Source of the DNA: Eubacteriales bacterium
GTDB lineage: Bacteria > Bacillota > Clostridia > Oscillospirales > RGIG5299
DNA length: 64,000 nt
Direction of reading: 5' to 3'
Assembly: GCA_045588575.1 (NCBI GenBank)
Contig: JAZNEJ010000008.1
Location: 108,060 to 172,059, forward strand
The translations under genes were made by a program, and so were the position numbers. The notes beneath the pieces were generated by a model. That model was not told the DNA's origin, did not search any database, and was given only the letters and a program-made list of their open reading frames with translations. This document shows positions 22,758 to 39,625 of the stretch, piece by piece; the stretch's first letter is position 1, and every line of letters begins with the position of its first letter.

Positions 22758-23522
22758 TTACACTGCAATTTGGCGTTTAAGTCTTAACTTATCTGCCAAA
22801 AGAGCAATAAATTCGCTGTTTGTGGGTTTGCCCTTGTTAACCGAAACAGTGTAGCCGAAAACCGACTGAAGCTTTTCTATATCGCCTCTTTCCCACGAAA
22901 CCTCAATTGCGTGGCGTATTGCTCTTTCAACTCTTGAAGGTGTGGTTTGGAATTTTTTCGCGATGGCAGGATATAAAATTTTTGTTACCGCGTGCATAAC
23001 CTCGGGGTTTTCAATAGACATAATAATTGCGCTTCTTATGTAATAATAGCCTTTTATATGAGCGGGAATACCGAGGTCTAAAATATAATCGGTAACCTCC
23101 TTTTCAATTTCGTGCATAAGTCCGCTGTCTATCTCCTCACTCTTTTGGCTTCCGCCTGCAAGACGCTTAATTCTGTCGCAAAGAGTATCGGCGTCAAACG
23201 GTTTTAAAAGATAGTAACCCACGCCGAGAGCATTCGATTCTTTCATAAGATAATCGCTTGAAAGCTTGGTTGCAATTACGAAAACGGTTTTCGGCGAGAG
23301 ATTTCTCTCCTTCACTCGCTTTATAACTCCAATTCCGTCAATTCCCGAAAGCAAAATGTCGGTTACCACAATATCGGGCTTTTCACTTCTTATAATGTTT
23401 AAACCTTCCTCACCGTTTCCCGTTGTTCCTACAATTTCAAATCCTCTTCTGTTCAACTCCATCGCCATTGAATGACGGAATGACGTGCTGTCATCCAACA
23501 GCAAAATTCGTGTTTTTAACAT
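22758..23522 (-). CDS. spo0A: Sporulation master regulator Spo0A
   Basis: Receiver domain (LLLDDS...[14 protein letters not shown]) plus the diagnostic Spo0A C-domain ([15 protein letters not shown]...[31 protein letters not shown]). Confidence 0.95.
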
Positions 23523-23845: not shown

Positions 23846-25987
23846 ATGGCAAAGAAAATAATTTCACTTTTGCTTTGCGTAATACTTTTACTTGGAGTTG
23901 CGAGCCTTTTTTCTGCCTGCAATATTCAAATGGTTGGCAGAACCTACTACATAAGCTCTTCAACAGGTAATGATGCAAACGACGCAAAAACCGAAAATAC
24001 CGCTTGGAAAACCTTTGCAAACCTTAAAAACACCGTTTTAAAAGAGGGCGACAGGGTTTTATTAAAACGAGGCGACGAATGGAACGAGCGTCTTGAAATT
24101 TACGGCGGCGGAAGCGAGGCTCACAGAGCTTTGGTTTCTTCCTACGGCGATAAATCTGCGCCCAAGCCCATAGTCCGTCTTAACAACGGCATAAACGATA
24201 TCTGCATGCTCGTTTCCGACGTGCGTTACGATGCTAACGCTCAAAATCAGGTTAACAACTGTTCAAACCTTACGATTGAGGAGCTCGACCTTAGAAGTGC
24301 ATACCTCGGCATTTATTTCAGAACTCTCGTTTATCACTGCAACAACTTAACCGTTAGAAACGTTGATATTTCTGAAATTTGGTGCGATGAGGTTTTAAGC
24401 AAAATGTCATCTGCCAACGGCGGCGGCCCAACCACCGACGCTTATTATGCAGGTCTTCCCAAAGCAAATCTTCCTTTGGTTACTATAAACCCCGACGCTC
24501 CCTATGATACTCCCCAAAAGGTAAGCTCGGTTCAAGCTACCGGCGGCGGCGCAAACGAATGGCTTATTGCAAGCGCAGTTTTGTTCACGGGCGGCTGGAC
24601 TAACCTTGAATTCGGAAATATCATTATGAATAACGCCGTTAACGGTCTTGAACTTATTGCCTCCTACGACATTTGGGTTCACGACGTAGTTGCGGCAGGC
24701 GGTCTTCCTTTCCGCTCACAGCAGTGCCACGATGTTACTCTTGAAAGAGTTCGTTGCTTGCAAACTCACGAAACGTACACCTTCTGGGGCGGCATTACCG
24801 GAAGCTATTTCGGCGCAACCACCAGAGCTCTTTTAAAAGACAGTGAAATGTCATACGTTTGGAGAAACGGCGAAAACGACGGTTGCGGACTCGACTACGA
24901 AACTCAGTGTTGGAGCGTTGCCACCCAAAACAGCGTTTTCCATCATAACGATTCGGGCTCTCTTTTAATTATGGAACTTCCCGAAACCAACCTGCACGAA
25001 AACGTAAGCTTTGATTATAACCTTTGCTATAACAATATCAGAGACGCCAAGAGCGACACCTATAACTACGAAGTTTTAATGAGAAACCACGGCACAAACA
25101 ACATCTCTATTTCCTATAACGATTTCTTTACCCGCGCATCTAACGGTTGGGGTCAGATTTACTACATCGGCTGCAAGGAAGACAAAGTTGCCGCTTCAAC
25201 GATTAAAGAAGGCAATAATCAAAATTCGGTTAACAATTACCGCACCCGTTTCGCTTTCAACAGCAGCAGCAACGAGGGTTGGTCGTTATATAACGGTCTC
25301 GGCGCATACGGAATTGAAGACGGCGTTTTGAAAATTGTTACAAACGCAAACAAAACGGGCGCAGTCGTTCTTAATAACCGCATCAACGGTCTTTGCTATA
25401 AGAAGATGTTCTTCAAGGTTACAAACGACGTTAAGGGAACCCTTCAGGTTCAATACACTCTTCCCGACGGAACAGTTGAAAAGAGCGAAGCAGTCAAGAT
25501 TAACGGTGCAGGCGACTATATTGTTTCACTTCCCGAAAATCTTGCTTCAATAATCGACGACGTTGCAATAATCTTTACTTCGAATAAAGCAAACCAGCAG
25601 CTTCACATTGATTACGCTCAGTTTATTCTCGATATGAACGCAACCGCTAAAAAGGCGGGCAACAATGCTATTGACATAACCTTCGGCGGCACCTCTACCC
25701 CCTTTATTTCCGATAGCATTAACACCTCTAATATTGCAATTAACGGCTACACCGTTTCCGGCATTAACAAAACCTCCTACAACACCGTTAGAGTAACGGT
25801 TAACGAAGCGGTTTCCGACCTTACCAATTTAAGCGTTACCGCAGATGCCGAGCTTTTCATTCCCTATTTTGCCGATATTATTAACGGTCTTGACTGCGAC
25901 AGAACTGCCGCGCAGGACGCATCGCTTCTCGGCGGAGCCGTTCAGTCTTTTTACTATAACGGTTCTCTTACCCTTATTTGTAAATAA
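23846..25987 (+). CDS. Beta-helix-like surface lipoprotein, paralogue 1 (713 aa)
   Basis: Signal peptide plus lipobox (LFSAC). YYISSSTGNDANDAKTENTAWKTF...EGDRVLLKRGDEWNE resembles the N-terminal cap of pectate-lyase-fold proteins. Conserved GENDGCGLDYETQCW and FHHNDSGSLLIME blocks. The C-terminal ~230 aa look like a beta-sandwich plus an Ig-like module. Family shared with five downstream genes. Confidence 0.7.
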   Translation: MAKKIISLLLCVILLLGVASLFSACNIQMVGRTYYISSSTGNDANDAKTENTAWKTFANLKNTVLKEGDRVLLKRGDEWNERLEIYGGGSEAHRALVSSYGDKSAPKPIVRLNNGINDICMLVSDVRYDANAQNQVNNCSNLTIEELDLRSAYLGIYFRTLVYHCNNLTVRNVDISEIWCDEVLSKMSSANGGGPTTDAYYAGLPKANLPLVTINPDAPYDTPQKVSSVQATGGGANEWLIASAVLFTGGWTNLEFGNIIMNNAVNGLELIASYDIWVHDVVAAGGLPFRSQQCHDVTLERVRCLQTHETYTFWGGITGSYFGATTRALLKDSEMSYVWRNGENDGCGLDYETQCWSVATQNSVFHHNDSGSLLIMELPETNLHENVSFDYNLCYNNIRDAKSDTYNYEVLMRNHGTNNISISYNDFFTRASNGWGQIYYIGCKEDKVAASTIKEGNNQNSVNNYRTRFAFNSSSNEGWSLYNGLGAYGIEDGVLKIVTNANKTGAVVLNNRINGLCYKKMFFKVTNDVKGTLQVQYTLPDGTVEKSEAVKINGAGDYIVSLPENLASIIDDVAIIFTSNKANQQLHIDYAQFILDMNATAKKAGNNAIDITFGGTSTPFISDSINTSNIAINGYTVSGINKTSYNTVRVTVNEAVSDLTNLSVTADAELFIPYFADIINGLDCDRTAAQDASLLGGAVQSFYYNGSLTLICK

Positions 25988-26084: not shown

Positions 26085-27029
26085 ATGATTGTAGACGTCT
26101 CTGTTGTTTCAAATATGGTTGCAATGCTGTTTGTTGTGCTTTTAATCGGCTTCGGCGCAAAAAAGCTTAACTGGGTAACAGACGTAACCTCAAAACAAAT
26201 ATCAAATCTTCTTATCAAGGTGGCGCAGCCTTTTTTAATTATAAGCTCGCTTTTAAAGCTCGATTATTCGGAAGAAAGGCTTTTAAGCGGCGGAATTATT
26301 TTTATAATAGGCGTTACCGTTCACGGCATCCTCTCGCTTTTTGCCTTTTTGGCAACGCGCCCTTTAAAAAAAGACGATAAAAGAAAAATTTGCGAATTTG
26401 CTTTAATTTTCGCAAACTGCGGATTTTTGGGATATCCCTTAATGGAAGCGGCAATGGGCCCCGAAGGTCTTTTCTATGCAAGCATTTACGTTTTAACCTT
26501 TAATATCTACGCTTGGACTTGGGGAATGTTCATTTTGGGCAAGGGCAGAGATGACGTTAAAATTAAGCCGAAAAATATGATTTTGAATTTCGGCACAATT
26601 CCTTGCCTTATAGGAATGGTTTTATACGTCGTTCAGCTCCCCGTCCCCGATTTTATGGTTAGCGCAATGAGCTCTATGGGCTCGGTTTGCACGCCTCTTT
26701 CTGTTTTCCTTTGCGGAATTTTGCTTGCGAAAATCCCCTTTAAAAAAATGTTTACGAGAATATCGGTTTACTACGTTGCCCTCTTAAAGCTCGTGATTTT
26801 CCCCGTTATTATAACTCTTATTGCAAAGCTTTGTGGTCTTTCGGAAACTATGATTTACGTTTCCGCAATAATGACCTCGCTCCCCACCGCAACCAATACC
26901 GCAATGTTTGCCGAAATGTATGATATTGAGCCCGAATATGCCGCTCAAACCGTTGGCACGTCAACTGCGCTTTGCGTTTTAACGGTGCCGTTCGTTGTTT
27001 TCCTCGCAGGGCTTATCGTGCAATTATAA
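26085..27029 (+). CDS. AEC (auxin efflux carrier) family permease
   Basis: 314 aa with ~10 TM segments. The N-terminus LLIGFGAKK...ISNLLIKVAQPFLI is typical of the AEC/membrane-transport family. Confidence 0.75.
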   Translation: MIVDVSVVSNMVAMLFVVLLIGFGAKKLNWVTDVTSKQISNLLIKVAQPFLIISSLLKLDYSEERLLSGGIIFIIGVTVHGILSLFAFLATRPLKKDDKRKICEFALIFANCGFLGYPLMEAAMGPEGLFYASIYVLTFNIYAWTWGMFILGKGRDDVKIKPKNMILNFGTIPCLIGMVLYVVQLPVPDFMVSAMSSMGSVCTPLSVFLCGILLAKIPFKKMFTRISVYYVALLKLVIFPVIITLIAKLCGLSETMIYVSAIMTSLPTATNTAMFAEMYDIEPEYAAQTVGTSTALCVLTVPFVVFLAGLIVQL

Positions 27030-27094
27030 TTTTAAAAAACCCGAATTTTTTGGGTTTTTTCTTTTTTAAACGGGTAAACTTAACAAAATAGGAG

Positions 27095-27123
27095 TTGTTT
27101 TAAAATAATGGCAATGCTATAAT
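27095..27123 (+). promoter_or_regulatory. Sigma-A-type extended -10 promoter of the AraC-GRE gene
   Basis: TTGTTT, 17-nt spacer ending TGc, TATAAT. Confidence 0.5.
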
Positions 27124-27142
27124 TTATGTGAGAGGTGGAAAA

Positions 27143-29776
27143 ATGTTTAACGTTTTAAAATATATACACGAAAACATTACAAGCAAGCTTACCGTAGAAG
27201 ACGTTGCAAATATTTTCGGCTATTCAAAATGGCATTTTTGCAAAAAATTCCACGAATACACAGGCCTTACCTTTGCCGAATATATAAGATATTACCGCAC
27301 ACGTCTTGCCTCAATAGATATTTTGCAGGGCAAAAAGGTAGTTGACGTTGCCACAAATTACGGCTACGATACCGCGGGAGGCTTTAACAAGGCGTTTTTG
27401 AAGGAATACGGCTGTTATCCCACCGAATATAAAAAGCAGGTAAAAGAAAGCTTGCTTTATTACGAATTGAGGAGAAAAAATATGTTTAGACTATCTAACC
27501 GTTGCGCTTATTTAAGAGAAGAAATTGTTAATTCAAAGAAACAAATGCGCTACTATGGCTTTCAGCGCTCCGTTTATGCCGCTCTTGCCACCGAAAAAGC
27601 GGCTAAAGAGGGCGTGGGCAGTCTTTCCGAAATTTACAGCGTTGCCGGCATTGAGGCAACTCTTAACCGCTTTACTCCTTATATTTATCCTCACGAGCTT
27701 ATAACGGGCTTTAACTTTGCCGACGGTATTTACGATTTTGCCCCGTTTGATAAAAACGAGCATTACGAAATGCTTAAAGATAACGGCATTTCCGACGAAG
27801 ATATAGAAGCCTATTTTAAAACAGACTCCTATTTTAAATGCTGGGCATGTTTAAATGAAAATTTCCCTCCCAATCTTCCCGGCCCCGCTCCCCGCACCGA
27901 GCGTGAAGAAGCCGCTCTTAAAGACCTTTCCTCAACCTGCTGGTGTATGACGGGCAACCACACCGTTATTGGCTATCAAAAGGTTTTGGAGCTTGGCTTT
28001 GAGGGAATTTATAAAGAAATTGAAAAATATGAAGAAATTAACGGAAGCTCCGATTTTTATAACTCTGCAAAACGCGTTTGCAAGGCGGCTATGCAAATCG
28101 GTGAAAAATATGCCGCAAAAGCCCGTGAACTTCTCGAAAGCAACGCTCCCGAATACGAGGCCGACGATTTGAATTTTATTATCTCAACCTGCTCACAAGT
28201 TCCCCGTTTTCCCGCAACTAGCTTTAAAGAGGCAATTCAATCGCTTTGGTTTGCCCATATAATCAACACATGGGAAGACGGCATTAACGCAAACTCGCTC
28301 GGAAGGCTCGACCAGATTCTTTACCCTTATTATATTGCTGATATTGAAAAGGGCGTTTTAACCAAGGAAGAAGCCTTCGAGCTTATTTGCTTACTCTGGT
28401 TAAAGCTTTACCGTGATTACGACGTTCAGCAGTCCTGCGTGGGAGGCACAAATCCCGACGGAACGAGCGCCGTTAACGAGCTTTCTTATATGATGCTCGA
28501 TGCAACCGAGGCTTTGGATTTTGTTCGCTGTCTTTCGGTCCGCTATTCCAAAAATACCGAAAAAGATTTCATAAAGCGTGCTCTCGAGGTTGTCGGGCAC
28601 GTTCAAAAGGGCGTTCCCTTCTTCTTTAACGACGACGTTATGATTCCCGCTTTACAAAGCGTCGGCATTTCAAGAGAAGACGCCTTCGATTACACTCAGA
28701 TAGGCTGCGTTGAAACGGTAATTCCGGGAAAATCGAATCCTCACGCCGTAACCGCAAGAGCAAACCTCTTAAAAGCAGTTGAATACACTTTTGCAAACGG
28801 AAAAAGCATGCGTTTTCCCGAGCTTGCTCCCGGTGAAAAAACGGGTGAGCTTTCGAAATTTAAAAGCTATGAGGATTTCTACGCCGCAGTTTTAAAGCAA
28901 ATAGACTGCATTTTGGAAAACTCCTGCTCGCTTGCAAAAAAGGCAAGAGATGCATCCGTTGCATTTAAACCCTATAAATCCATTTTAACCGAGGGTTGTC
29001 TGGAAAAAGGCAGAGATTTTAACGATTACGGCGCAAAATACGATTATTACCAAATGGCGCTTATGGGAATTCCCAATCTTGCCGATTCGCTTGCATCCGT
29101 TAAAAAATTTGTTTACGATACCCGCAAATACACCCTTAACGAAATGAAGGAAATTTTGGAAAATAACTTCCCCGATGAAAGCGTAAGGCAGGAATTTATA
29201 AACAAAGCTCCCAAATTCGGTAACGATATAGACGACGTAGACCTTATTGCTGCGGCGGTAACCGAACACGCCTGCGATAAGTTAATTGAGCTTTCAAAAA
29301 AATATTCAATGAGCTTCCACGCTCAGCCCTTTACTTACGTTTGGTTGGTTGAGCACGGTTCTACTTGCGCGGCAAGTCCCGACGGAAGAAAAATGGCGGA
29401 AAACATTGCATACAGCGTTTCACCAATGCAAGGAAGAGATTTTAGCGGTCTTACCTCTCTTTTAAACTCCATTGCAAAGCTCCCCACAACCAAAACTCCG
29501 GGAACCGCCTCTGCAATAGTTGAGGTAGACCCCAAGCTTTATACCGACAGAAATATAGGTATGCTCACCGAAATTTTTCTTGCAAGCAGTAAAAAAGGTT
29601 TGGCAAACGTTCAGTTTAACACCGTTGACGCCGAAACGCTTATAGATGCGAAAAACCATCCCGAAAAATATAACAATCTTGCCGTCAGAGTTTCGGGATT
29701 CAGCCAAAAATTTAACCTTTTGGGTCCCGATTTACAAGACCATATTATCGGAAGGACGAAACACAAATGCCTTTAA
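27143..29776 (+). CDS. Glycyl radical enzyme (eliminase/dehydratase-type, GCVE active site) with in-frame N-terminal AraC/MarA-type HTH domain
   Basis: The first ~105 aa form a two-HTH AraC DNA-binding domain (LTVEDVANIFGYSKWHFCKKF...ATNYGYDTAGGFNKAFLKEYGCYPTEYKK). The remainder is PFL-like: QIGCVET (Cys 28706-28708, Glu 28712-28714) and glycyl motif AVRVSGFS (Gly 29696-29698). ATG at 27143 has GAGAGGTGG upstream, while the listed GTG at 27128 is unlikely. An internal GAGGAG-N7-ATG lies at 27469-27484. Confidence 0.85.
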   Translation: MFNVLKYIHENITSKLTVEDVANIFGYSKWHFCKKFHEYTGLTFAEYIRYYRTRLASIDILQGKKVVDVATNYGYDTAGGFNKAFLKEYGCYPTEYKKQVKESLLYYELRRKNMFRLSNRCAYLREEIVNSKKQMRYYGFQRSVYAALATEKAAKEGVGSLSEIYSVAGIEATLNRFTPYIYPHELITGFNFADGIYDFAPFDKNEHYEMLKDNGISDEDIEAYFKTDSYFKCWACLNENFPPNLPGPAPRTEREEAALKDLSSTCWCMTGNHTVIGYQKVLELGFEGIYKEIEKYEEINGSSDFYNSAKRVCKAAMQIGEKYAAKARELLESNAPEYEADDLNFIISTCSQVPRFPATSFKEAIQSLWFAHIINTWEDGINANSLGRLDQILYPYYIADIEKGVLTKEEAFELICLLWLKLYRDYDVQQSCVGGTNPDGTSAVNELSYMMLDATEALDFVRCLSVRYSKNTEKDFIKRALEVVGHVQKGVPFFFNDDVMIPALQSVGISREDAFDYTQIGCVETVIPGKSNPHAVTARANLLKAVEYTFANGKSMRFPELAPGEKTGELSKFKSYEDFYAAVLKQIDCILENSCSLAKKARDASVAFKPYKSILTEGCLEKGRDFNDYGAKYDYYQMALMGIPNLADSLASVKKFVYDTRKYTLNEMKEILENNFPDESVRQEFINKAPKFGNDIDDVDLIAAAVTEHACDKLIELSKKYSMSFHAQPFTYVWLVEHGSTCAASPDGRKMAENIAYSVSPMQGRDFSGLTSLLNSIAKLPTTKTPGTASAIVEVDPKLYTDRNIGMLTEIFLASSKKGLANVQFNTVDAETLIDAKNHPEKYNNLAVRVSGFSQKFNLLGPDLQDHIIGRTKHKCL

Positions 29777-30681
29777 AAGCAATAATTTCAAATATTGCCC
29801 TCTGCTCGCTTCACGACGGCGACGGCGTCAGAGCCGTTGTTTATTTTAAAGGTTGCGGTCTTAACTGCAAGTGGTGCCACAATCCCGAAACAAATTCAAA
29901 AAAACCCGAAATTATTTACACTCCCGTAAAATGCATTTGCTGCGGCAGATGCATTGAGGTTTGTCCCTCCTGCCATATTATTAAAGACGGAAAAATGGAG
30001 TTTTTAAGAAAAAACTGCACCGGTTGCGGAAAATGCTTTGAGGCTTGCCCCACAGGCGCTCTTTCGCTTTGCGGCGAATATAAAACCGTTTCCGACGTTT
30101 TTAATTTCGTTATGAAGGATGCCCACTACTACGAGGCAACGGGCGGCGGCGTAACGCTTTCGGGCGGTGAATGTCTGCTTTGGTCGGATTTTTGTGCGGA
30201 GCTTTTAAAAAAATGCAAAGAAAACGGAATTAACACCGCAGTTGAAACGGCTCTTTTCGTCGATTGGCTTAAAATTCAAAAGGTTATTCCGTATGTCGAC
30301 CTTTTTTACGCCGATTTAAAAATTCCGAATTCAAAAAAGCACGAAAAATATACGGGAAGCGGAAACGAGTTAATTATTGAGAATATGCAAAAATTAACAA
30401 AAGAAGCAAAAAGAGTTATTATTCGCATTCCGCTTATTCCCACGGTAAACGACGGCAACGAAGATATTAAAGGCTTTGCCGAAATTATCAAAACGCTTGA
30501 AAAAATTGAGGGCATTGAGGTTTTAAAATATAATAATCTTGCGGAATCGAAATATAACGGAGTCGGAAAAAGCTTTTATTCCTTTGCAAAGGAAAGTCAG
30601 TCGGACGAGGAAATAAAAGAATTTTGCAGAAAGTTAAAAGCGGAGCTTGCTGATAAGATAAACGTTTTTTTTGAAAAATAA
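29767..30681 (+). CDS. Glycyl-radical enzyme activating protein (radical SAM, two auxiliary 4Fe-4S motifs)
   Basis: CGLNCKWCHNPE (CX3CX2C) followed by CICCGRCIEVCP and CTGCGKCFEACP. The 10-nt overlap with the GRE stop suggests translational coupling. Confidence 0.9.
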   Translation: MPLKAIISNIALCSLHDGDGVRAVVYFKGCGLNCKWCHNPETNSKKPEIIYTPVKCICCGRCIEVCPSCHIIKDGKMEFLRKNCTGCGKCFEACPTGALSLCGEYKTVSDVFNFVMKDAHYYEATGGGVTLSGGECLLWSDFCAELLKKCKENGINTAVETALFVDWLKIQKVIPYVDLFYADLKIPNSKKHEKYTGSGNELIIENMQKLTKEAKRVIIRIPLIPTVNDGNEDIKGFAEIIKTLEKIEGIEVLKYNNLAESKYNGVGKSFYSFAKESQSDEEIKEFCRKLKAELADKINVFFEK

Positions 30682-30688
30682 ATTCTAG

Positions 30689-30717
30689 TTGTCATTAAAT
30701 AAGAAATATTGTAAAAT
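30689..30717 (+). promoter_or_regulatory. Sigma-A-type promoter of paralogue 2
   Basis: TTGTCA, 17-nt spacer, TAAAAT. Confidence 0.45.
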
Positions 30718-30750: not shown

Positions 30751-32850
30751 ATGGCGAAGAAAATAATTTCAATTTTACTTTGTGTTGTTATGCTTGCAGG
30801 TCTTATGAGCTTTTTCTCTTCCTGTAACTTTCAAACCGTTGGAAGAACCTATTACATAAGCTCTTCAACCGGTAACGACGATAATGATGCAAAAACAGAA
30901 GGCTCCGCTTGGAAAACTCTTAAAAATCTCAAAAACACAATTTTGCAAGAGGGCGACAGAATTTTATTAAAGCGCGGCGACGAATGGAACGAGCGTTTAG
31001 AAATTTACGGCGGCGGAAGCGAGGAGCATAAAGCTCTCGTTTCTTCCTACGGCAATCCCCTTGACCCCAAGCCGATAATTCGCCTTAATAACGGTCTTGA
31101 CGATATTTGTTTGCTTTATTCCGACCTTCGTTACGACCCTCAGCAAAAAAATATGGCAAACGAAATGGGCAACATTATCATTGAAGAGCTCGACCTTCGT
31201 AACGCTTATCTCGGCATTTATATAAGAAATATTTTTTACAGCGCAAAGAACTTAACTGTAAGAAACGTTGATATTTCCGAGATTTACTGCGATGAAGCCG
31301 AAAGTAAATTCACTTGGGCGGGCGGTGGTCCCGAAATGGTTGAATATTACGGTAAGATGGCGAAAGGAAATCTTCCCAAGGTTAACAAAAACACCGGCAT
31401 TGTAACCGAAACGGGCGGCGGCGGAAGCGAATGGGCTCTTTCAAGCGCGGTTTTAACAAACGGCGGCTGGGAAAACGTTGAATTTTCAAATATCATTATG
31501 AATAATGCAGGTCCCATTGGTCTTGTTGCCTTTAAAAACGTTTATATGCACGATATTACCGTTGCAGGCGGCGCAATTTTTAAAAGCGAGCATTGCACCG
31601 ACGTTAAAATTGAAAGATGCCGCTCTCTTGAAGGCAACAAAAAATACAGCTTCTACGGCGGCACAACGGGAAGCTACGTTGGCACCTCCAGCAATTTCCT
31701 TGCTCAAAACATTGAAATTTCTTACATTTATAATCACGGTGAAAACGACGGTTGCGGCATTGATTATGAAACTCAGTGCTGGAATGCGGCTATTAAGGAT
31801 TCCGTTTTCCACCACAACGATTCGGGTTCCCTTTTAATTATGGCTCTTCCCGAATATGCTCTCCACGAAAACGTTTCTTTCGACCACAATCTTTGCTACG
31901 ATAATATAAGAAATCCCAAAAACGGCATTTATAATTGGGAAATTTTAATGAGCAATATCGGCAAGGATAATCTCTCCATTTCTTATAACGATTTCTTCAC
32001 ACGCGCAAGAACGAAATGGGGTCCCGTTTTGTATATAGGCTGTAACGAGGCTCCCCAATCTCCCACCACCACGAAAATTGATAATAACGAAAGCCGTCTT
32101 GATAACTACCGCACCCGTTTTAGCTTTAACAAAGACGGAAACGGCGAGGGCTTTGCCGCTCACACCGGCACTTTTACCGTTGCAAACGGTGTTGGTAAAA
32201 TAACCGCCAAAGATAAACTCGGCGCTATTGTTTTAAACAACCCCATCAACGCCTTTTGTTATAAAAAGATGCTCTTTAACGTTTCAAACGATGCAAAAGG
32301 CACTCTTCAGGTTCAGTATGCTCTTGCCGACGGCACCGTTAAAAAGAGCGAAAAGGTAAATCTTAACGGCGCAGGCGGTTATATTGTTAATCTCGGTGAA
32401 AACATATCTTCCGCCATTTACGATATCGTTGTAATTTACACTCCTTCAAGCTCAAACGGCTCGGTTGAGTTCGATTTCATTCAGTTTATGGTTGATATTG
32501 ATGCCTCGGCAAGAAAGTCGGGCAACAAAACCATTGACGTAACCTTCACGGGCGACAGCGTTCCCTTTATTGAAACCAATCCTCAGGTAAAATCAATCGC
32601 CCTTTCGGGCTATACGGTTAACGCCGTTGAAAAAATCAACTACAACACCGTTAGAGTAACGGTTAACGAAAACGTCGGTAATCTTAAAAATCTTAAAGTT
32701 ACCGCAAAGGCAGACCTTTTCATTGCATATTTTGCCGATATTATTAAAGGTCTTGATTGCGACAGAACCGCCGCCGACGATGCGGCTCTTCTCGGTTGTC
32801 AAACTCAACACTACTTCTATAACGGAAGCATTAGCTTAACCTGTAAATAA
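30751..32850 (+). CDS. Beta-helix-like surface lipoprotein, paralogue 2 (699 aa)
   Basis: Signal peptide plus lipobox FFSSC, with the same conserved blocks as paralogue 1. N- and C-terminal thirds are nearly identical to paralogue 4, and the middle is unique. Confidence 0.7.
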   Translation: MAKKIISILLCVVMLAGLMSFFSSCNFQTVGRTYYISSSTGNDDNDAKTEGSAWKTLKNLKNTILQEGDRILLKRGDEWNERLEIYGGGSEEHKALVSSYGNPLDPKPIIRLNNGLDDICLLYSDLRYDPQQKNMANEMGNIIIEELDLRNAYLGIYIRNIFYSAKNLTVRNVDISEIYCDEAESKFTWAGGGPEMVEYYGKMAKGNLPKVNKNTGIVTETGGGGSEWALSSAVLTNGGWENVEFSNIIMNNAGPIGLVAFKNVYMHDITVAGGAIFKSEHCTDVKIERCRSLEGNKKYSFYGGTTGSYVGTSSNFLAQNIEISYIYNHGENDGCGIDYETQCWNAAIKDSVFHHNDSGSLLIMALPEYALHENVSFDHNLCYDNIRNPKNGIYNWEILMSNIGKDNLSISYNDFFTRARTKWGPVLYIGCNEAPQSPTTTKIDNNESRLDNYRTRFSFNKDGNGEGFAAHTGTFTVANGVGKITAKDKLGAIVLNNPINAFCYKKMLFNVSNDAKGTLQVQYALADGTVKKSEKVNLNGAGGYIVNLGENISSAIYDIVVIYTPSSSNGSVEFDFIQFMVDIDASARKSGNKTIDVTFTGDSVPFIETNPQVKSIALSGYTVNAVEKINYNTVRVTVNENVGNLKNLKVTAKADLFIAYFADIIKGLDCDRTAADDAALLGCQTQHYFYNGSISLTCK

Positions 32851-32913: not shown

Positions 32914-32982
32914 TAAAACAATGGCAAAAGCCACTAAAATAAAACGAAAGAAAGCAACCCGAAAGTTTTGGAGGAATGCAAA

Positions 32983-35076
32983 ATGGCAACGAAAAAAATA
33001 GGCAACACCTATTACATCAGCTGGTCTGAAGGTAACGACTCAAACAGCGGCAAAAGCAAAAACGCTCCCTGGAAAAGCTTTAAAAAAATTAATGCCAAGG
33101 TTTTAAAGCCGGGCGATAAGGTTTTATTAAAAAGAGGCGATATTTGGCACGAGCGTTTGGAAATTTACGGCGGCGGCTCGGAAGAAAACAACGTTTTGGT
33201 TTCGGCATACGGCGATAAAAACGCACCCAAGCCTCGAATTCAGCTTTCAAACGGAATGGACGACATTTGCGTTTTGGTTTCCGACGTAAGATATAATAAA
33301 AGCGGTAAAAATCAAATTCACGAATGCTCAAACCTCATAATCGAAGAACTCGACCTTCGCAACACCTATCTCGGCATTTATTTCAGACTTAAATTCTTAA
33401 AGAGCAAAAACTTAATCGTCAGAAACATCTACTTCCACGATATTTTCTGCGATGAAACTCTTAAGTCTATGGCAACCAAATACGGCGGCTGCGTAGAAGA
33501 GATGAACAGACAAGGCGCAAGAATTAAAGGAAATCTTGCCATTGTTAATCTCGAAAAGAGAAGAGCCGTTGCCCCCACGGGAGCAGCAGCCGAATATCTT
33601 CTTGCCTGCGCGGTTATCTTTAACGGCGGCTACTCAAACGTTGAGCTTTACAATTTAACTCTTTATAACGTTTACGTTGGCATTGAGCTTATTGCGGTTA
33701 AAGACGTTTTCCTTCACGATATGGTTTCTTCCGGCAACTGCTCGTTCCGTTTGCAGCTTTGTGAAAACGTTAGAGTTGAAAGATGCCGTATGCTTTCAAG
33801 CGGCGTAGACTACACCTTCTTCGGCGGCACCTGCGGTTCCTATTTTGCAGATTCCGACCATAACCTCATTAAAAACAACGAGCTTTCCTACACATATAAC
33901 TTAGGCGAAAACGACGGCTGCGCGCTCGACTTCGAATACCGTTGCGGCCACACCACCATTGAAAACAACGTATTCCATCACAACGATTCGGGCTCAATGC
34001 TCTTTATGGGACTTCAGGAGGGCCAGCGCCATAACAACGTTGTTGTTGAAAACAACCTTTCTTACGCCAACATAAGAAACCCCAAAAATCAGCAGTATAA
34101 TTTTGAATTTTTATGCGACGTTTTGGGCTTTGATAACACCGAGGAAACCGTGCGTCTTGCAGGAAACACAATGTTTACAAGAGAAATTTCCAACGGCCAC
34201 CGCACCTTCTTCTTCGGAAGCCTCGAAGAACAATATAAAATCTTGCGTCTTTGCGACGGCGGCTCTTCCACCCCCAACAGCTATCCTCGCCTTCACGCAA
34301 AAAACAACAAGAATAACCTCAAAAACTACCACAACCGTCTTGCATTCTTAAAAGATTACGATAACTTAAACCTTCTCCCCGAAAAAACCATGGTAAACGT
34401 TGAAGACGGCGTTTTAACCCTTTACCCCAGAAACGGCGTTGCCAAAACGGTTTTAACCACCCCCATCAACGGCTTCTGCTACACCAAGGCAAGACTTGTT
34501 GTTAATAACGATGCAAAGGGCGACCTTGCAATTAGCTACACTCTTTCCGACGGCACCCTCGTAATGCTCGACGATATTAAAATAAGAGGTGCGGGCGAAT
34601 ATATTGTAACTCTTGCCGATGAAGCAATTTGCTCGATAATCCGCAACTTCACCATCGTCTTCAAGCCCTCGAGAGGCAACACTCCCCTTGAAATTTCAAT
34701 GTTCGAATTCTTGCCCGACTTAAACGGAAGCGCAAACAAGGCGGGAGATAACGAAATAGATGTAACCTTCGGCGGCGTTTCATTCCCGATGATTGCTTTT
34801 TATCCTCAGGCAGAGGATATTGAAATTGAAGGCTACACCGTTAAGGGAATTGAAAAGCTCAGCCACAACACTTTAAGAGTAACGGTAGCCGAAAAGGTTG
34901 GCTCGCTTAAAGACGTTAAAGTAACGGCAAAGGCAGCATTATTCCTTGAATATTTCAAGGACCTTCTTAACGGTCTTGACTGCGAACGCTCAATTTCCGA
35001 CGATTCAGCTCTTGCAGGCGTTGCCACCGATAAAACGAGCTACTACAACGGCGCTCTTATCTTCAATTGTAAATAA
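32983..35076 (+). CDS. Beta-helix-like protein, paralogue 3, without signal peptide (predicted cytoplasmic, 697 aa)
   Basis: ATG at 32983 has GGAGGA 7 nt upstream, the same SD geometry as its siblings. The product starts MATKKIGNTYYIS, which is MAKKI + GRTYYIS of the siblings with the hydrophobic core and lipobox missing. It is the most diverged member. Confidence 0.7.
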   Translation: MATKKIGNTYYISWSEGNDSNSGKSKNAPWKSFKKINAKVLKPGDKVLLKRGDIWHERLEIYGGGSEENNVLVSAYGDKNAPKPRIQLSNGMDDICVLVSDVRYNKSGKNQIHECSNLIIEELDLRNTYLGIYFRLKFLKSKNLIVRNIYFHDIFCDETLKSMATKYGGCVEEMNRQGARIKGNLAIVNLEKRRAVAPTGAAAEYLLACAVIFNGGYSNVELYNLTLYNVYVGIELIAVKDVFLHDMVSSGNCSFRLQLCENVRVERCRMLSSGVDYTFFGGTCGSYFADSDHNLIKNNELSYTYNLGENDGCALDFEYRCGHTTIENNVFHHNDSGSMLFMGLQEGQRHNNVVVENNLSYANIRNPKNQQYNFEFLCDVLGFDNTEETVRLAGNTMFTREISNGHRTFFFGSLEEQYKILRLCDGGSSTPNSYPRLHAKNNKNNLKNYHNRLAFLKDYDNLNLLPEKTMVNVEDGVLTLYPRNGVAKTVLTTPINGFCYTKARLVVNNDAKGDLAISYTLSDGTLVMLDDIKIRGAGEYIVTLADEAICSIIRNFTIVFKPSRGNTPLEISMFEFLPDLNGSANKAGDNEIDVTFGGVSFPMIAFYPQAEDIEIEGYTVKGIEKLSHNTLRVTVAEKVGSLKDVKVTAKAALFLEYFKDLLNGLDCERSISDDSALAGVATDKTSYYNGALIFNCK

Positions 35077-35119: not shown

Positions 35120-35148
35120 TTGCTTTTTTTAAATCTATATGTTATATT
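35120..35148 (+). promoter_or_regulatory. Sigma-A-type extended -10 promoter of paralogue 4
   Basis: TTGCTT, 17-nt spacer ending TGt, TATATT. Confidence 0.55.
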
Positions 35149-35189
35149 TATATAGGATTAAATCCGCAAAGAATACGGAGGAAAGAAAA

Positions 35190-37283
35190 ATGGCAAAGAA
35201 GATAATTTCAATTTTACTTTGCGTTGTTATGCTTGCAGGCGTTATGAGCTTTTTATCGGCTTGTAATTTCCAAACCGTTGGAAGAACCTATTACATAAGC
35301 TCTTCAACCGGTAACGACGATAACGATGCAAAAACAGAAGGCTCTGCTTGGAAAACCTTTAAAAACCTCAAAACAACCGTTTTAAAGGAAGGCGACAGAG
35401 TTTTACTCAAAAGAGGCGACGAATGGAACGAGCGCCTTGAAATCTACGGCGGCGGCTCGAAAGAGCACATGGCTTTGGTTTCGGCATACGGCGATAAAAA
35501 CGCGCCCAGACCTCGCATTAAACTTAACAACACAATCGACGATATATGCGTTTTGGTTTCCGACGTTCACTACGAAAAAGACCAGAAAAATATGGTTAAC
35601 GAAATTTCCAACCTTATCATCGAGGAGCTCGATATAAGAAACGCTTATCTCGGCATTTATTTCAGAACCTTGTTCTTCACACACAAAAACCTTATTGTAA
35701 GAAATCTTGAAATTTCTGAAATTTGGGCAGAGGGCGTTTCGAGTCCCACCGGCGGAAGCGCAGTAACCGACGCTGCAATTGCCGCTCAACCCAAAGGAAA
35801 TCTTCCCAAGGTTAACAAAAACACCGGTCTTGTAACCGAAACGGGCGGCGGCGCTAACGAATGGCTCCTTGCAAGCGCAGTTTTATTCACGGGCGGATGG
35901 GAAAACGTTGAATTCGGAAATCTCCGCTTTAACAATGCCGTTAACGGCCTCGAGCTTATAGTTATGAAGGACGTTTGGGTTCACGATATAATTTCCGCAG
36001 GCGGTCTTGTTTTCCGTTCACAGCACTCCGAAAACGTTAAGGTTGAAAGATGCCGCTTGCTTTCCACTCACGAAGAATTCACCTTCTGGGGCGGTATGAC
36101 CGGAAGCTATCTCGGCACTGCTACCAATAACGTTGTAACCAACAACGAGTTCTCTTACTGTTACAGAAACGGCCAGAACGACGGCTGCGGTCTTGACTAT
36201 GAAACTCAGTGCTGGGATACCAAGGTTGAATACAACGTATTCCACCACAACGATTCGGGCTCGCTTTTAATTATGGAGCTTCCCGATTACGGCGTTCACG
36301 ATAACATAACTTTCGACCACAACCTTTGTTACAACAACATAAGAGACCCCAAAACCACAACTTACAACTACGAAGTTTTAATGAGAAACCACGGCACCAA
36401 CAATATTTCAATTTCCTATAACGATTTCTTCACTCCCGCAAGAACAAAATGGGGCATTGTTGATTACATTGGCTGCAATGAAGACAGAGTTGCCGCTTCA
36501 ACCATTCAGGTTGGCAACAACGAAAAAACCGTTGACGATTACCGCACCCGTTTTAGCTTTAACAAAGACGGCTTCGGCGAGGGATTTGCCGCTCACACCG
36601 GCTCGTTCACCGTTGCAAACGGCGTTGGTAAAATAACCGCCAAGGATAAGCTCGGCGCTATTGTTTTAAACAATCCCATCAACGGCTTCTGCTACAAGAA
36701 GATGCTCTTTAACGTTGCAAACGATGCAAAAGGCACTCTTCAGGTTCAGTATTCTCTTTCCGACGGCACCGTTAAAAAGAGTGAAAAGGTAAATCTTAAC
36801 GGCGCAGGCGGCTACATTGTAAATCTCGGTGAGGATATCAATTCCGCACTTTACAACATCGTTGTAATTTACACTCCCTCAAGCTCAAACGGCTCGGTTG
36901 AATTCGATTTCATTCAGTTTATGATTGATATGGATGCAACCGCAAGAAAGTCGGGTAACAAAACCATCGACGTAACCTTTGTTGGCGATAGCGTTCCCTT
37001 TGTTTCCGATAAAGCAACCGCAAAGCACATCTCCATTAACGGCTACACCGTAACCAAAATGGAAAAGGTAAACTACAACACCGTTAGAGTAACGGTTAAC
37101 GAAAACGTCGGTAACGTTAAAAATCTTAAAGTTACCGCACAGGCAGGTCTCTTTATAGACTATTTTGCCGATATCATTAAAGGTCTTGATTGCGACAGAA
37201 CCGCCGCAGACGATGCAGCTCTTCTCGGTTGCCAAACTCAAGCCTACTATTATAGCGGCGCACTTGCTTTCACCTGCAAATAA
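35190..37283 (+). CDS. Beta-helix-like surface lipoprotein, paralogue 4 (697 aa)
   Basis: MAKKIISILLCVVMLAGVMSFLSAC lipoprotein signal, with GGAGGA upstream of the ATG at 35190. The listed ORF start at 35139 is an upstream extension. Confidence 0.7.
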   Translation: MAKKIISILLCVVMLAGVMSFLSACNFQTVGRTYYISSSTGNDDNDAKTEGSAWKTFKNLKTTVLKEGDRVLLKRGDEWNERLEIYGGGSKEHMALVSAYGDKNAPRPRIKLNNTIDDICVLVSDVHYEKDQKNMVNEISNLIIEELDIRNAYLGIYFRTLFFTHKNLIVRNLEISEIWAEGVSSPTGGSAVTDAAIAAQPKGNLPKVNKNTGLVTETGGGANEWLLASAVLFTGGWENVEFGNLRFNNAVNGLELIVMKDVWVHDIISAGGLVFRSQHSENVKVERCRLLSTHEEFTFWGGMTGSYLGTATNNVVTNNEFSYCYRNGQNDGCGLDYETQCWDTKVEYNVFHHNDSGSLLIMELPDYGVHDNITFDHNLCYNNIRDPKTTTYNYEVLMRNHGTNNISISYNDFFTPARTKWGIVDYIGCNEDRVAASTIQVGNNEKTVDDYRTRFSFNKDGFGEGFAAHTGSFTVANGVGKITAKDKLGAIVLNNPINGFCYKKMLFNVANDAKGTLQVQYSLSDGTVKKSEKVNLNGAGGYIVNLGEDINSALYNIVVIYTPSSSNGSVEFDFIQFMIDMDATARKSGNKTIDVTFVGDSVPFVSDKATAKHISINGYTVTKMEKVNYNTVRVTVNENVGNVKNLKVTAQAGLFIDYFADIIKGLDCDRTAADDAALLGCQTQAYYYSGALAFTCK

Positions 37284-37392: not shown

Positions 37393-39522
37393 ATGCTGAA
37401 AAAGATAATTTCAATTTTGCTTTGCGTTATAATTTTATTCGGCTTAACGAGCTTTTTTTCTTCTTGCAGCGTTAAACTCGGAAGAAGCTACTACATAAGC
37501 TCTTCAACCGGCAACGACGCAAACGATGCCAAAACCGAAAAAACCGCTTGGAAAAGCTTTGAAAATCTTAAAGACGTGGTTCTTCAGCCCGGCGATAAGG
37601 TTTTATTAAAGCGTGGCGACGAATGGAACGAGCGCTTGGAAATCTACGGCGGCGGAAGCACGAAATGCAGAGCTTTGGTTTCCTCTTACGGCGATATATC
37701 TAAGCCAAAGCCCATAATCCGTCTTAATAACACCATAAACGATATTTGCGTTTTGGTTGCCGACGTTCGATATGATGAAAATCAGCAGAATATGTTTAAC
37801 GAGATTTCCAATCTCACCATTGAAAATTTAGACGTTCGCAACGCATATCTCGGAATTTATATCAGAACTCTCAAATACTACTGCAAAAATTTAACCATTC
37901 AAAATTGCGATATTTCTAACATCTGGGCAGAAGAAATTTTAGAAACCAACTCAAGCGGCTATAAATGCGTGCTTAATTACTCCATTCCCGGAAGCCTTGG
38001 CGAAAGATACGCCACAATGGCAAAAGGAAATCTTCCTTATTGGAACAGGCAAACAAACGAAGTATTGCCCACCGGCGGCGGTGCAATCGGTGATGAAGCT
38101 TGGTTCCTTGCCAGCGCAGTATTATTCACGGGCGGCTGGACTAACGTTGAAATAGGCAATATAGTTATGAACAACAATATGAACGGTCTTGAGCTCATTG
38201 CCTCGAAGGATATTTGGGTGCACGACGTTATTGCCGCAGGCAGTCTTACCTTCCGCTCACAGCATTGCACCAACGTTACCATTGAAAGAACCCGTTGCTT
38301 GCAAACTCATCAGGAAATTACCTTCTGGGGCGGCATTACGGGAAGCTATTTCGGCACCACCACAAACGGTATTTTCAAAAACAGCGAGATTTCTTACGTT
38401 TGGAGAAACGGTGAAAACGACGGCTGCGCCATAGACTACGAAACTCAGTGTTGGGATTGCAAAATTGAAAACAACGCCTTCCATCATAACGATTCGGGCT
38501 CGCTTTTAATTATGGAGCTTCCCGCAACTGCAACTCATTCTAACGTTACCTTCAACTCCAATCTTTGTTACGATAACATAAGAGACCCCAAAAGCGGCAT
38601 TTATAACTGGGAAGTTTTTATGAAAAACAACGGCAGAGATAATATATCAATCTCCTATAACGATTTCTTCACGCCGTTCAGAACCAAATGGGGCATTCCC
38701 GGATATATAGGTTGTAATGAAGACAGATTTGCCGCAACCACAATTAAAGACGGTAACGTTGAAAAGGATACCGACGATTACCGCACTCGTTTTTCCTTTA
38801 ACAAAGACGGAAATACGGAAGGCTGGAAAATTCTTAACGGAAGCTTCACCGTGGCAAACGGCATTGGTAAGTTAACGGCGAAAAACAAGCTTGCCGCAAT
38901 GGTTTTAGATATTCCCGTTAACGGCTTTTGCTATAAAGAGCTTCTTTTTAAGGTTACCAATAACGCAAAGGGAATGCTTCAGCTTCAATATGCAAACTCC
39001 GACGGAACTATTATAAGAACCGAAAAGGTAGCGGTAAACGGCGCAGGGGAATATTCCGTTTCTCTCGGAAAAGACATCTATTCCGTTTTGAAAAACGTTA
39101 CGGTTTTATTCACTCCCGTTGAGCCTAACGGAAGCTTGGAGCTTGACTACGCTCAGTTTATTCTCGATATGAGTGCCTCGGCAAAAAAATCGGGAACAAG
39201 AACCATCGACGTAACCTTTACGGGTGAATCGTTCCCCGTTATAAGCGATTATTTGCAAGCAAGCTATTTAACGGTTAACGGCTATACGGTTAACAAAATT
39301 GAAAAAATAAATTACAACACTGTCAGAGTAACCGTTAACAAAAACGTGGGTAATTTAAGCAACCTGAAAATTACCGCAAAAGCAGAGCTTTTCATTCCTT
39401 ACTTTGCCGATATCATTAAAGGGCTTGACTGCGACAGAACCGCCGCAGACGATGCAGCTCTTCTCGGTTGCTCCGCTCAAAGCTACTACTATAACGGAAG
39501 CATTTCCTTAACCTGTAAATAA
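37393..39522 (+). CDS. Beta-helix-like surface lipoprotein, paralogue 5 (709 aa)
   Basis: MLKKIISILLCVIILFGLTSFFSSC lipoprotein signal and the family blocks (GENDGCAIDYETQCW, FHHNDSGSLLIME). Confidence 0.7.
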   Translation: MLKKIISILLCVIILFGLTSFFSSCSVKLGRSYYISSSTGNDANDAKTEKTAWKSFENLKDVVLQPGDKVLLKRGDEWNERLEIYGGGSTKCRALVSSYGDISKPKPIIRLNNTINDICVLVADVRYDENQQNMFNEISNLTIENLDVRNAYLGIYIRTLKYYCKNLTIQNCDISNIWAEEILETNSSGYKCVLNYSIPGSLGERYATMAKGNLPYWNRQTNEVLPTGGGAIGDEAWFLASAVLFTGGWTNVEIGNIVMNNNMNGLELIASKDIWVHDVIAAGSLTFRSQHCTNVTIERTRCLQTHQEITFWGGITGSYFGTTTNGIFKNSEISYVWRNGENDGCAIDYETQCWDCKIENNAFHHNDSGSLLIMELPATATHSNVTFNSNLCYDNIRDPKSGIYNWEVFMKNNGRDNISISYNDFFTPFRTKWGIPGYIGCNEDRFAATTIKDGNVEKDTDDYRTRFSFNKDGNTEGWKILNGSFTVANGIGKLTAKNKLAAMVLDIPVNGFCYKELLFKVTNNAKGMLQLQYANSDGTIIRTEKVAVNGAGEYSVSLGKDIYSVLKNVTVLFTPVEPNGSLELDYAQFILDMSASAKKSGTRTIDVTFTGESFPVISDYLQASYLTVNGYTVNKIEKINYNTVRVTVNKNVGNLSNLKITAKAELFIPYFADIIKGLDCDRTAADDAALLGCSAQSYYYNGSISLTCK

Positions 39523-39594: not shown

Positions 39595-39625
39595 ATATTT
39601 ACCCTTGAAATGCGAGGTAAAAATT

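Follow-up and report, generated by a model that had tools for sequence, protein, structure and literature searches.

The window analysed here, a stretch of 64,000 nucleotides from a Eubacteriales bacterium (GTDB lineage Clostridia; Oscillospirales; RGIG5299; positions 108,060 to 172,059 of the forward strand of contig JAZNEJ010000008.1, assembly GCA_045588575.1), carries on its plus strand an unbroken open reading frame (ORF) that extends from an ATG at position 27143 to a TAA at 29774–29776 and encodes a protein of 877 amino acids. In this protein, designated HTH-GRE, an N-terminal DNA-binding domain with two helix-turn-helix (HTH) motifs is continuous with a glycyl radical enzyme (GRE). An earlier note on this DNA had described such an in-frame fusion of an AraC/MarA-type domain to a GRE, and the continuous ORF together with the Pfam domains bore it out to the base. 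HTH_AraC was matched by residues 8–49 (47.6 bits, cut-off 26.6), HTH_18 by residues 22–99 (63.9 bits, cut-off 33.6), PFL-like (PF02901) by residues 126–731 (416.7 bits) and Gly_radical (PF01228) by residues 758–858 (77.8 bits), the latter two also above their curated cut-offs. The two-HTH domain comprises residues 1–104 (27143–27454), its last helix (residues 93–113, 27419–27481) serves as the connector, and the GRE body occupies 27482–29776. Exactly at the junction, the Shine-Dalgarno (SD) sequence GAGGAG (27469–27474), lying within the codons L109-R110-R111, is followed by the 7-nt spacer AAAAAAT and the in-frame ATG of Met114 (27482–27484). These coordinates agree with the earlier note, which had put the GRE part at about 775 amino acids; this size had to be corrected to the 764 residues counted from Met114. 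Neither a stop codon nor a frameshift, which the note had named as possible flaws of the junction, was present in the sequence between 27440 and 27482.

On its 5′ side, the HTH-GRE transcription unit is bounded by the intrinsic terminator of the upstream Mem_trans gene (27034–27060, plus strand), a 12-pair stem followed by a T-run. Downstream of it and on the same strand lies an asymmetric 20-nt candidate operator, AACAAAATAGGAGTTGTTTT (27082–27101), whose positions 14–19 form a −35-like hexamer, TTGTTT (27095–27100), at 17 nt upstream of the −10 box of an extended −10 element, TGcTATAAT (27115–27123). The start of the long product was assigned to ATG 27143, with the SD sequence GAGAGGTGG 4 nt upstream of it (27130–27145 including the start codon), and the resulting N terminus aligns with those of the homologues (MxxVLKYIHE). 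A GTG at 27128 was also considered as the start and rejected, as the homologues all begin M/V-[FY]-x-V-L-K-Y-I-H. At the 3′ end, the gene of a radical-SAM (S-adenosylmethionine) GRE-activating enzyme (29767–30681, plus strand) follows directly, its ATG overlapping the GRE stop by 10 nt.

That the fusion is genuine is virtually certain. A search of 5.8 billion clustered proteins gave 712 matches at E ≤ 1e-10, and all of the best 120 of these 712 clusters, the first of which is the window's own protein, combined HTH_18, PFL-like and Gly_radical in a single chain of 836–919 amino acids at 60–71% identity. These clusters came from NCBI, ENA, JGI and Logan assemblies, and the few that carried a name had only a generic one (‘helix-turn-helix domain-containing protein’ or else ‘pyruvate formate lyase family protein’) and originated from metagenome-assembled genomes (MAGs) of Clostridia, Ruminococcaceae or Christensenellales. 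A species-level scan with one genome per GTDB species yielded 80 loci (cited below by L numbers), nearly all from MAGs of gut or rumen Clostridia, which were sorted by hidden Markov models made from each half of the HTH-GRE protein. The HTH and the GRE were encoded in a single ORF in 56 of these 80 loci, and a stand-alone GRE starting at or near the equivalent of Met114 was found in approximately 18. Not one of the 80 showed a split arrangement, in which a cognate HTH gene would end in a stop codon of its own and be set off from the GRE gene by an intergenic region. The alternative that an ordinary AraC-type regulator gene and an adjacent GRE gene were joined by a missed stop or a frameshift could appeal to a few broken copies in related MAGs, namely frameshifts within the gene in L019, L060 and L062 and an in-frame stop approximately 24 codons past the Met114 equivalent in L031 (L031:1189–1191), which represent either assembly errors or pseudogenization. 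The same continuous architecture and length in at least 120 independent clusters of such diverse provenance, the 56 fused species-level genomes and the lack of any separated version reduce the probability of this alternative to a negligible level, and an assembly or sequencing artefact was ruled out by this conservation at both levels. The database check proposed in the earlier note thus found the fusion conserved, and the orthologous loci do not, as the note had allowed, consistently keep regulator and GRE as separate genes.

An exhaustive deep search of 1.84 billion representatives at 50% identity revealed further fused clusters at only 38–42% identity (P0124, P0126, P0127 and P0129), whose domains were confirmed by Pfam. 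In a neighbour-joining tree of the GRE domain, with the stand-alone proteins P0125 and P0130 as outgroups, all fused proteins fell into one clade, within which stand-alone forms were nested at approximately 8–10 positions. This nesting indicates that the fusion is ancient, arose once and was lost about 8–10 times. At three loci (L042, L052 and L054), remnants of the HTH C terminus are preserved upstream of the GRE start, and at the sequence level these remnants directly document secondary loss of the HTH domain.

The N-terminal domain belongs, as judged by alignment, profile scores and a structural model, to the AraC/XylS family and has the fold of MarA, SoxS and Rob without being orthologous to any named regulator. 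Residues 3–100 aligned by phmmer to RamA (3e-14), SoxS, Rob and MarA over the full domain length, although the scores against the NCBIfam equivalogs were far below the cut-offs (ramA_TF 63.2 against 180, SoxS 58.2 against 174, RobA 56.3 against 380 and MarA 38.3 against 250). Recognition helix 1 (GYSKWHF-CKKF) hardly differs from its counterparts in MarA (GYSKWHL-QRMF), Rob and RamA, with W30 aligned to W42, C33 to Q45 and K34 to R46 of MarA. An AlphaFold2 model (pLDDT 84, pTM 0.80; pLDDT 84–92 for the HTH domain) showed the seven helices of the MarA fold at residues 2–10, 18–24, 29–40, 44–61, 66–72, 78–89 and 93–113, which places recognition helix 1 at approximately residues 29–40 (including W30, C33 and K34, the latter encoded by 27242–27244) and recognition helix 2 at approximately 78–89. 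Helix 7 is unbroken from residue 93 to 113 and ends directly before Met114, the first GRE helix being formed by residues 119–131. As this continuous helix bears Y106, Y107 and E108, which are invariant in the aligned homologues, the model suggests a rigid rather than a flexible link between HTH and GRE. Ratios of nonsynonymous to synonymous substitution rates (dN/dS) of 0.067 for the HTH domain, compared with 0.052 for the GRE core and 0.12 for the N-terminal region of the GRE, place both halves under purifying selection, the HTH domain strongly so, and the latter looks functional.

The GRE body has retained the residues expected of an active enzyme. The radical glycine, Gly852 (codon 29696–29698), lies within RVSGFSQ (R849-V-S-G852-F), the Cys loop reads GCVET (G521-C522-V-E524) with the thiyl residue Cys522 encoded by 28706–28708 and Glu524 by 28712–28714, and His273 is encoded by 27959–27961. 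Gly852 and Cys522 did not vary among 32 close or 10 distant homologues; His273 was also invariant and Glu524 nearly so. The best sequence match in the PDB was a glycerol dehydratase (1r8w, 6.5e-93), and Foldseek retrieved GRE structures at TM scores of 0.73–0.82, the 1,2-propanediol and glycerol dehydratases at approximately 0.81. The body passed none of the NCBIfam equivalog or subfamily cut-offs of the characterized GRE eliminases (glycerol/propanediol dehydratase, HypD, CutC, sulfopropanediol dehydratase and PflD/YbiW): the best profile, TIGR01774 of the PFL2-3 subfamily, scored 406.8 against a cut-off of 678.2, and HypD (332 against 1100) and CutC (301 against 1050) likewise stayed below theirs. 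In the alignment, the positions matching H281, S282 and D447 of glycerol dehydratase are occupied by Asn, Ala and Val, and the substrate is therefore probably neither glycerol nor propanediol; the attempt to assign a substrate from active-site residues had only this negative outcome. The downstream gene encodes a genuine GRE activase, as judged by its domains (Pfam Radical_SAM, Fer4_12 and Fer4) and by a TIGR02494 score of 320.7 (cut-off 174.35), and it adjoins the GRE in 44 of 51 fused and 13 of 18 stand-alone loci. Loci without an adjacent activase keep the canonical catalytic motifs. From these sequence features we infer a catalytically competent GRE of the eliminase/dehydratase type.

Two further arrangements of GREs were noted in the course of this analysis. 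A second, different GRE of approximately 709 amino acids occurs within 7 kb in six fused loci (for example L045:15833–17980, minus strand) and in no stand-alone locus, and P0142 (912 amino acids) combines an N-terminal F5/8 type C domain (discoidin, carbohydrate-binding) with full PFL-like and Gly_radical domains.

The candidate operator was first spotted by eye in the aligned upstream regions of the fusion genes, where a 20-nt element with the consensus CGCAATTTTGGAGTAG precedes 53 of them, and was then refined with a position weight matrix (PWM) to the family consensus CGCAATTTTGGAGTAGATTT. Positions C3, A4, A12 and G16 were invariant in all 53 loci, and A5, G11 and T14 were present in 52. 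The conserved positions carry 1.76–1.87 bits of information, compared with 0.9–1.4 bits for the −10 hexamer, and the 13-nt spacer between the operator and the −10 box is unconserved (0.05–0.6 bits). The geometry of the promoter is nevertheless fixed across the 53 loci, with G16 exactly 20 nt ahead of the TATAAT-like hexamer, which is preceded by the TG of an extended −10 element in 29 of the 53; the start codon follows 41–47 nt past the operator in most loci. Operator positions 14–19 (TWGWWW) coincide with the position of the −35 hexamer, and the CRCAA-N4-GGAG portion spans approximately −46 to −34. In the window, the operator scored 19.8 bits and was the only match of at least 17 bits in 64 kb. 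When 1.2 Mb were scanned on both strands at this threshold, 54 of 60 matches lay directly upstream of HTH-GRE starts, and none of the 18 stand-alone orthologues was preceded by an operator (best score 13.3, most below 7).

A link between the element and the fused HTH domain itself is provided by covariation. Of 20 loci with K or R at residue 34, 18 have T or G at operator position 15, and of 25 loci with S, T, D, E, A or V at this residue, 23 have A there (18/2 vs 2/23; Fisher's exact test, p = 3.5e-8); the window copy obeys this rule with K34 and T15. Residue 34, aligned to MarA R46, which we take to be a base-contacting residue, ranked first among 519 variable protein columns for association with position 15. 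Furthermore, when nearest relatives were matched on the GRE part alone, a difference in the class of residue 34 was accompanied by a difference at position 15 in 16 of 20 pairs, compared with 2 of 22 same-class controls that differed at this position. Since residue 34 covaries with position 15, these data suggest that recognition helix 1 reads the promoter-proximal GTWG half of the site and helix 2 the distal CRCAA half, and that the bulky GRE would sit on the upstream side of the operator. The opposite assignment, with helix 1 reading CGCAA because of its resemblance to the GCAC half of the marbox, was dropped, as the covariation points the other way. The asymmetry of the operator fits a monomeric protein with two HTH motifs rather than the palindromic sites of dimeric global regulators. 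Taken together, we consider it quite probable that the HTH domain binds this operator and autoregulates its own gene.

Additional copies of the operator were few. At locus L027, operator and promoter lie 1.55 kb upstream of HTH-GRE, ahead of an inserted lipoprotein gene (operator L027:8449–8468), so that, by its position, the operator has stayed with the promoter of the operon despite the gene inserted before HTH-GRE. Second copies were present before a gene for a 565-amino-acid family-1 ABC (ATP-binding cassette) solute-binding lipoprotein (L032:1441–1460 and L070:845–864), and an extra copy before a gene for a 162-amino-acid membrane-anchored protein (L074:9352–9371). The extra sites of L027 and L032/L070 keep the same spacing to a −10 box. 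The genes behind the extra operators of L027, L032/L070 and L074 all lie just upstream of HTH-GRE and are possible lineage-specific regulon members. A regulon defined from the lipoproteins of L027 and L032 proved too weak and was abandoned, as the 492-amino-acid protein of L027 has no detectable similarity to that of L032 (BLASTP E = 0.16) and only the latter resembles family-1 ABC solute-binding proteins. A metagenome-wide scan for the operator plus −10 pattern gave 21 exact matches, of which 4 lay before HTH-GRE genes; the remaining 17, in unrelated contexts, are consistent with chance or SD-like matches, and the scan was uninformative with regard to a regulon.

The second conserved feature is the start signal at the junction. 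With a background of about 2% of codon positions, an SD-like pentamer before an ATG of one single sequence would carry no significance, whereas its conservation in the family is highly significant. A strict SD (AGGAG or GGAGG with a spacer of 4–12 nt) was found before the junction ATG in 35 of 53 fused loci but before only 3 of 906 other in-frame ATGs of the same genes (Fisher's exact test, p = 4e-47), and a loose SD in 47 of the 53. Met114 was invariant in 32 of 32 aligned homologues, and the junction codon is ATG in 50 of the 53 fused loci, the window included. In the 24 nt before this ATG, AGG accounts for 45% of the Arg codons as compared with 9% elsewhere. The pentamer is retained despite changes in the peptide register (ERRK, EKRR, DRRSK), and in L041, L043, L049 and L068 it is kept in another codon frame (GAG GAG AGA), which argues for selection on the nucleotides and not on the peptide alone. 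Moreover, most stand-alone orthologues begin at the ATG equivalent to Met114, usually with an SD 6–10 nt upstream; those in which the HTH is fully gone have stop codons ahead of this ATG, and L042, L052 and L054 begin there while keeping their HTH remnants. Nowhere else in the mRNA of this gene is the structure as weak as at the junction (z = +1.33). The internal SD and ATG pointed out in the earlier note are thus conserved at the nucleotide level and constitute the actual start of most HTH-less orthologues, and it is likely that the internal start is used, giving a GRE-only isoform.

Within the HTH coding region, a promoter-like match (TTGACG-17-TACGAT, 27342–27370, plus strand) was detected approximately 110 nt upstream of the internal ATG. 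Its −10 is weak and it coincides with conserved codons; in principle it could give rise to a GRE-only transcript.

These features can be combined into a model of an autoregulated bifunctional enzyme-regulator with two isoforms, which on sequence grounds appears likely. The long isoform would bind, via its two recognition helices, the operator abutting or overlapping the −35 of its own promoter, and this binding would autoregulate the operon of HTH-GRE and activase as a self-contained two-gene unit. Activation would be slightly favoured over repression by analogy with the class II promoters of MarA, SoxS and Rob. Initiation at Met114 would supply a GRE-only isoform, such that the bulk of the enzyme could be made without the DNA-binding domain. 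As GREs are generally dimers, short and long chains could form mixed dimers and so tune the number of HTH domains per dimer. More speculatively, substrate occupancy or the activation state of the GRE might be relayed through the connector and modulate DNA binding, with which its predicted rigidity and invariant residues would be compatible; we regard such gating by the state of the enzyme as a tentative proposal whose chances fall somewhat short of even. The boldest version, a radical-enzyme transcription factor in which the substrate or glycyl-radical state would switch the HTH via helix 7, the short isoform would titrate this switch through mixed dimers and the GRE of the deepest clades, having lost its activase partner, would be a pure ligand sensor in control of glycan-utilization genes, seems rather unlikely as a whole.

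Several points weigh against this model or restrict it. The near-consensus extended −10 may work unaided by any activator, and repression is for this reason equally plausible. The PWM was scored on the very upstream regions from which it had been built, the lack of an operator at the HTH-less loci may partly reflect deletions that removed promoter and HTH together, and the covariation test cannot fully remove phylogenetic dependence, 4 of the 20 matched pairs showing no co-change. No conserved regulon member was found beyond the gene itself, the extra sites being confined to L027, L032/L070 and L074. Low GC content accounts for most of the weakness of mRNA structure at the junction. Lastly, the deep fused clades have no Met114, and the two-isoform feature is thus, as far as the alignments indicate, specific to the clade of the window.

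Some of these points also feed the rival explanations. The upstream element might not be the target of the fused HTH at all, but an unusual core-promoter element or the site of an unlinked regulator inherited with the 5′ end of the gene, in which case the HTH would bind elsewhere or have a role not involving DNA. The coincidence of operator positions 14–19 with the −35 hexamer, the loss of promoter and HTH in one deletion as a cause of their co-absence and the exact pattern in 17 unrelated metagenomic contexts could all be read in this manner. However, CRCAA-N4-GGAG lies upstream of the −35 hexamer and to our knowledge matches no consensus element of a sigma factor, and the site lacks the palindromic form that a dimeric global regulator would call for. 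It is moreover a residue of recognition helix 1 that, of all 519 columns, correlates best with position 15, and at the deep-clade P0124 locus diverged recognition helices are accompanied by a correspondingly diverged element (14 bits) of the same geometry. An element unrelated to the fused HTH is thus quite improbable. A somewhat stronger case, though still an unlikely one, can be made for an obligate fusion, in which only the protein of approximately 100 kDa is made and the SD-like sequence and Met114 persist for some purpose unrelated to initiation, such as a structural role of ERRK and Met in the connector helix or ribosome pausing that aids HTH folding before the GRE emerges. It would accommodate the invariance, as amino acids, of Y106, Y107, E108 and Met114 on or beside a predicted continuous helix, the deep clades that keep the fusion without Met114 and the low junction structure that follows from low GC. 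It is difficult to reconcile with an AGGAG preserved through shifts of peptide register and in another codon frame, with an AGG usage five-fold above the gene average, with the near absence of SD-like pentamers before other in-frame ATGs (3/906), and with initiation of most HTH-less orthologues, including those with HTH remnants, at the junction ATG with this very SD.

The GRE moiety of the long form might instead be mainly a sensor. The protein would then be a regulator akin to Rob in which the ligand-binding domain is giant, and catalysis would be left to the short isoform or to none. This reading draws on the deep fused clades, whose loci (L081 and L082 for P0124, L083 for P0127, L084 for P0126 and L085–L087 for P0129) lack an activase within 4 kb. 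Their proteins keep the catalytic Gly and Cys, but the contexts of the Gly loop have degenerated from RVxG to QVFG, NVSG, NIYG and AVSG, and the loci of P0124 and P0126 adjoin cohesin-dockerin or rhamnosidase-like glycoside hydrolase genes. These clades may be en route to pure regulators with a GRE-derived sensor domain, a lead taken from four representatives. In the main clade, 7 of 51 fused loci are likewise without an adjacent activase. On the other hand, RVSGFSQ, GCVET and His273 are invariant in the clade of the window, even where no activase is adjacent, the activase gene overlaps the GRE stop codon, and dN/dS is lower in the GRE core than anywhere else in the protein, so that a predominantly sensory role is improbable here. 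The bifunctional enzyme-regulator with two isoforms remains the reading that we prefer.

The other genes around HTH-GRE showed no such conservation. Six paralogous lipoproteins of approximately 700 amino acids are encoded in tandem on the plus strand (23846–25987, 30751–32850, 32968–35076, 35139–37283, 37393–39522 and 39605–41806), the latter five sharing 46–64% identity with the first. Pfam gave no match for any of the six; their N-terminal 90 or so amino acids resemble GH136 lacto-N-biosidases (LnbX; PDB 7v6m and 5gqc), and they may be surface glycosidases that act on host or milk glycans and have expanded specifically in this lineage. Most of these genes are followed by a strong terminator of their own. 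The earlier note had suggested that HTH-GRE might control the surrounding paralogue genes and had named the eight promoters of the locus as DNA to be assayed for binding. This suggestion was not upheld: the genes concerned are these lipoproteins and not paralogues of the GRE, and when the whole window was scanned with the PWM down to 10 bits, no operator appeared before them, the only matches being HTH-GRE's own promoter and an intragenic 13-bit match at 58584, and neither the lipoproteins nor the Mem_trans gene stand next to HTH-GRE at any of the 80 related loci. All-against-all clustering of the ORFs within 7 kb identified the activase as the only neighbour conserved in more than eight loci, and the conserved unit is thus, by this comparison, HTH-GRE plus activase only. 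Because no terminator was found between the activase and the lipoprotein gene at 30751, where a promoter-like site (30689–30717) is located, read-through into this gene is possible but would be specific to this genome. The Mem_trans gene, encoding a permease of the auxin-efflux-carrier type (26085–27029, plus strand), lies directly upstream of the HTH-GRE promoter, from which it is separated by its terminator; as it is not conserved beside the homologues, it is unlikely to encode the transporter of the substrate. Spo0A is encoded a few kb from HTH-GRE in the window (22758–23522, minus strand) as well as in L012, L018, L028 and L062, and a protease-like ORF, perhaps SpoIVB judging from its sequence, recurs nearby in seven loci. 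This proximity looks more like conservation of the place on the chromosome than like any obvious link in function.

No description of an HTH-GRE protein turned up in full-text searches of the literature, in agreement with the statement of the earlier note that such an arrangement had not been seen described for GREs. Among characterized regulators, Rob is the closest in design. Like Rob, and MarA, SoxS and RamA, the protein has an N-terminal domain of approximately 100 amino acids with two HTH motifs and the GYSKWH motif that aligns end to end, and as in Rob the larger domain follows the DNA-binding one; the predicted asymmetric site of approximately 20 bp beside or overlapping the −35 recalls the class II promoters of the mar/sox/rob system. 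It differs in that the partner is a radical enzyme of 764 amino acids instead of the GyrI-like ligand-binding domain of approximately 170 amino acids in Rob, in that the second recognition helix (GGFNKAF) and the second half-site depart from those of the MarA group and the marbox, respectively, in scores far below the equivalog cut-offs of RamA, SoxS, Rob and MarA, and in its host, a lineage of Gram-positive gut Clostridia. PutA, BirA and NadR are trigger enzymes, or bifunctional enzyme-repressors, and share with HTH-GRE the union of a DNA-binding and a catalytic domain in one polypeptide and a target, here predicted, in the promoter of the own operon. The enzyme class (GRE) and the AraC-type fold set HTH-GRE apart from them, as does the link between catalysis and DNA binding, which is hypothetical in the present case, and we know of no conserved internal start for an enzyme-only isoform in PutA or BirA.

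With the glycerol and 1,2-propanediol dehydratases (1r8w, 5i2a/5i2g and 9rco), the GRE body has in common the fold (TM approximately 0.81) and the radical-SAM activase downstream, and with glycerol dehydratase in particular the Gly loop, the GCVE Cys loop with its general-base Glu, and His273, which corresponds to H164. Unlike these enzymes, to which it is only 27–30% identical, it falls below the TIGR01774 cut-off and possesses an N-terminal HTH; the solved GRE matches listed are of 764–871 amino acids, and none is long enough for such an extension. Finally, in-frame internal starts that yield a long and a short isoform are known from CheA-L/S, ClpB and IF2. The junction of HTH-GRE resembles these in its in-frame ATG with a properly spaced SD conserved beyond coding constraint and in the completeness of the domain that the short product is predicted to comprise, but differs from them in that the predicted short form is devoid of the DNA-binding domain, so that the isoforms would differ in regulatory capacity. 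Fusions of enzymes with transcription factors are already known as a concept; the novelty lies in the class of the enzyme partner, a GRE, in the operator and in the dual start with its conservation.

Few enzyme families in the gut microbiome are as abundant as the GREs. No function has been assigned to most GRE clusters, and control of GREs is usually credited to separate regulators. In the family described here, which occurs widely among the gut Clostridia of humans and ruminants, the regulator is part of the enzyme itself. The predicted operator, the specificity residue (K or R at position 34 with T or G at operator position 15) and the probable expression of two isoforms amount to a compact and testable model of an enzyme that would report its own state at its own promoter, and the pair of promoter and regulator could be used in reporter screens for the substrate. 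The repeated loss of the HTH domain, together with the deep clades that lack the activase, offers a natural series on the origin of a trigger enzyme and its decay to pure enzymes or to sensors. If the sensor reading of the deepest clades is true, the transition from enzyme to sensor would be documented within a single lineage.

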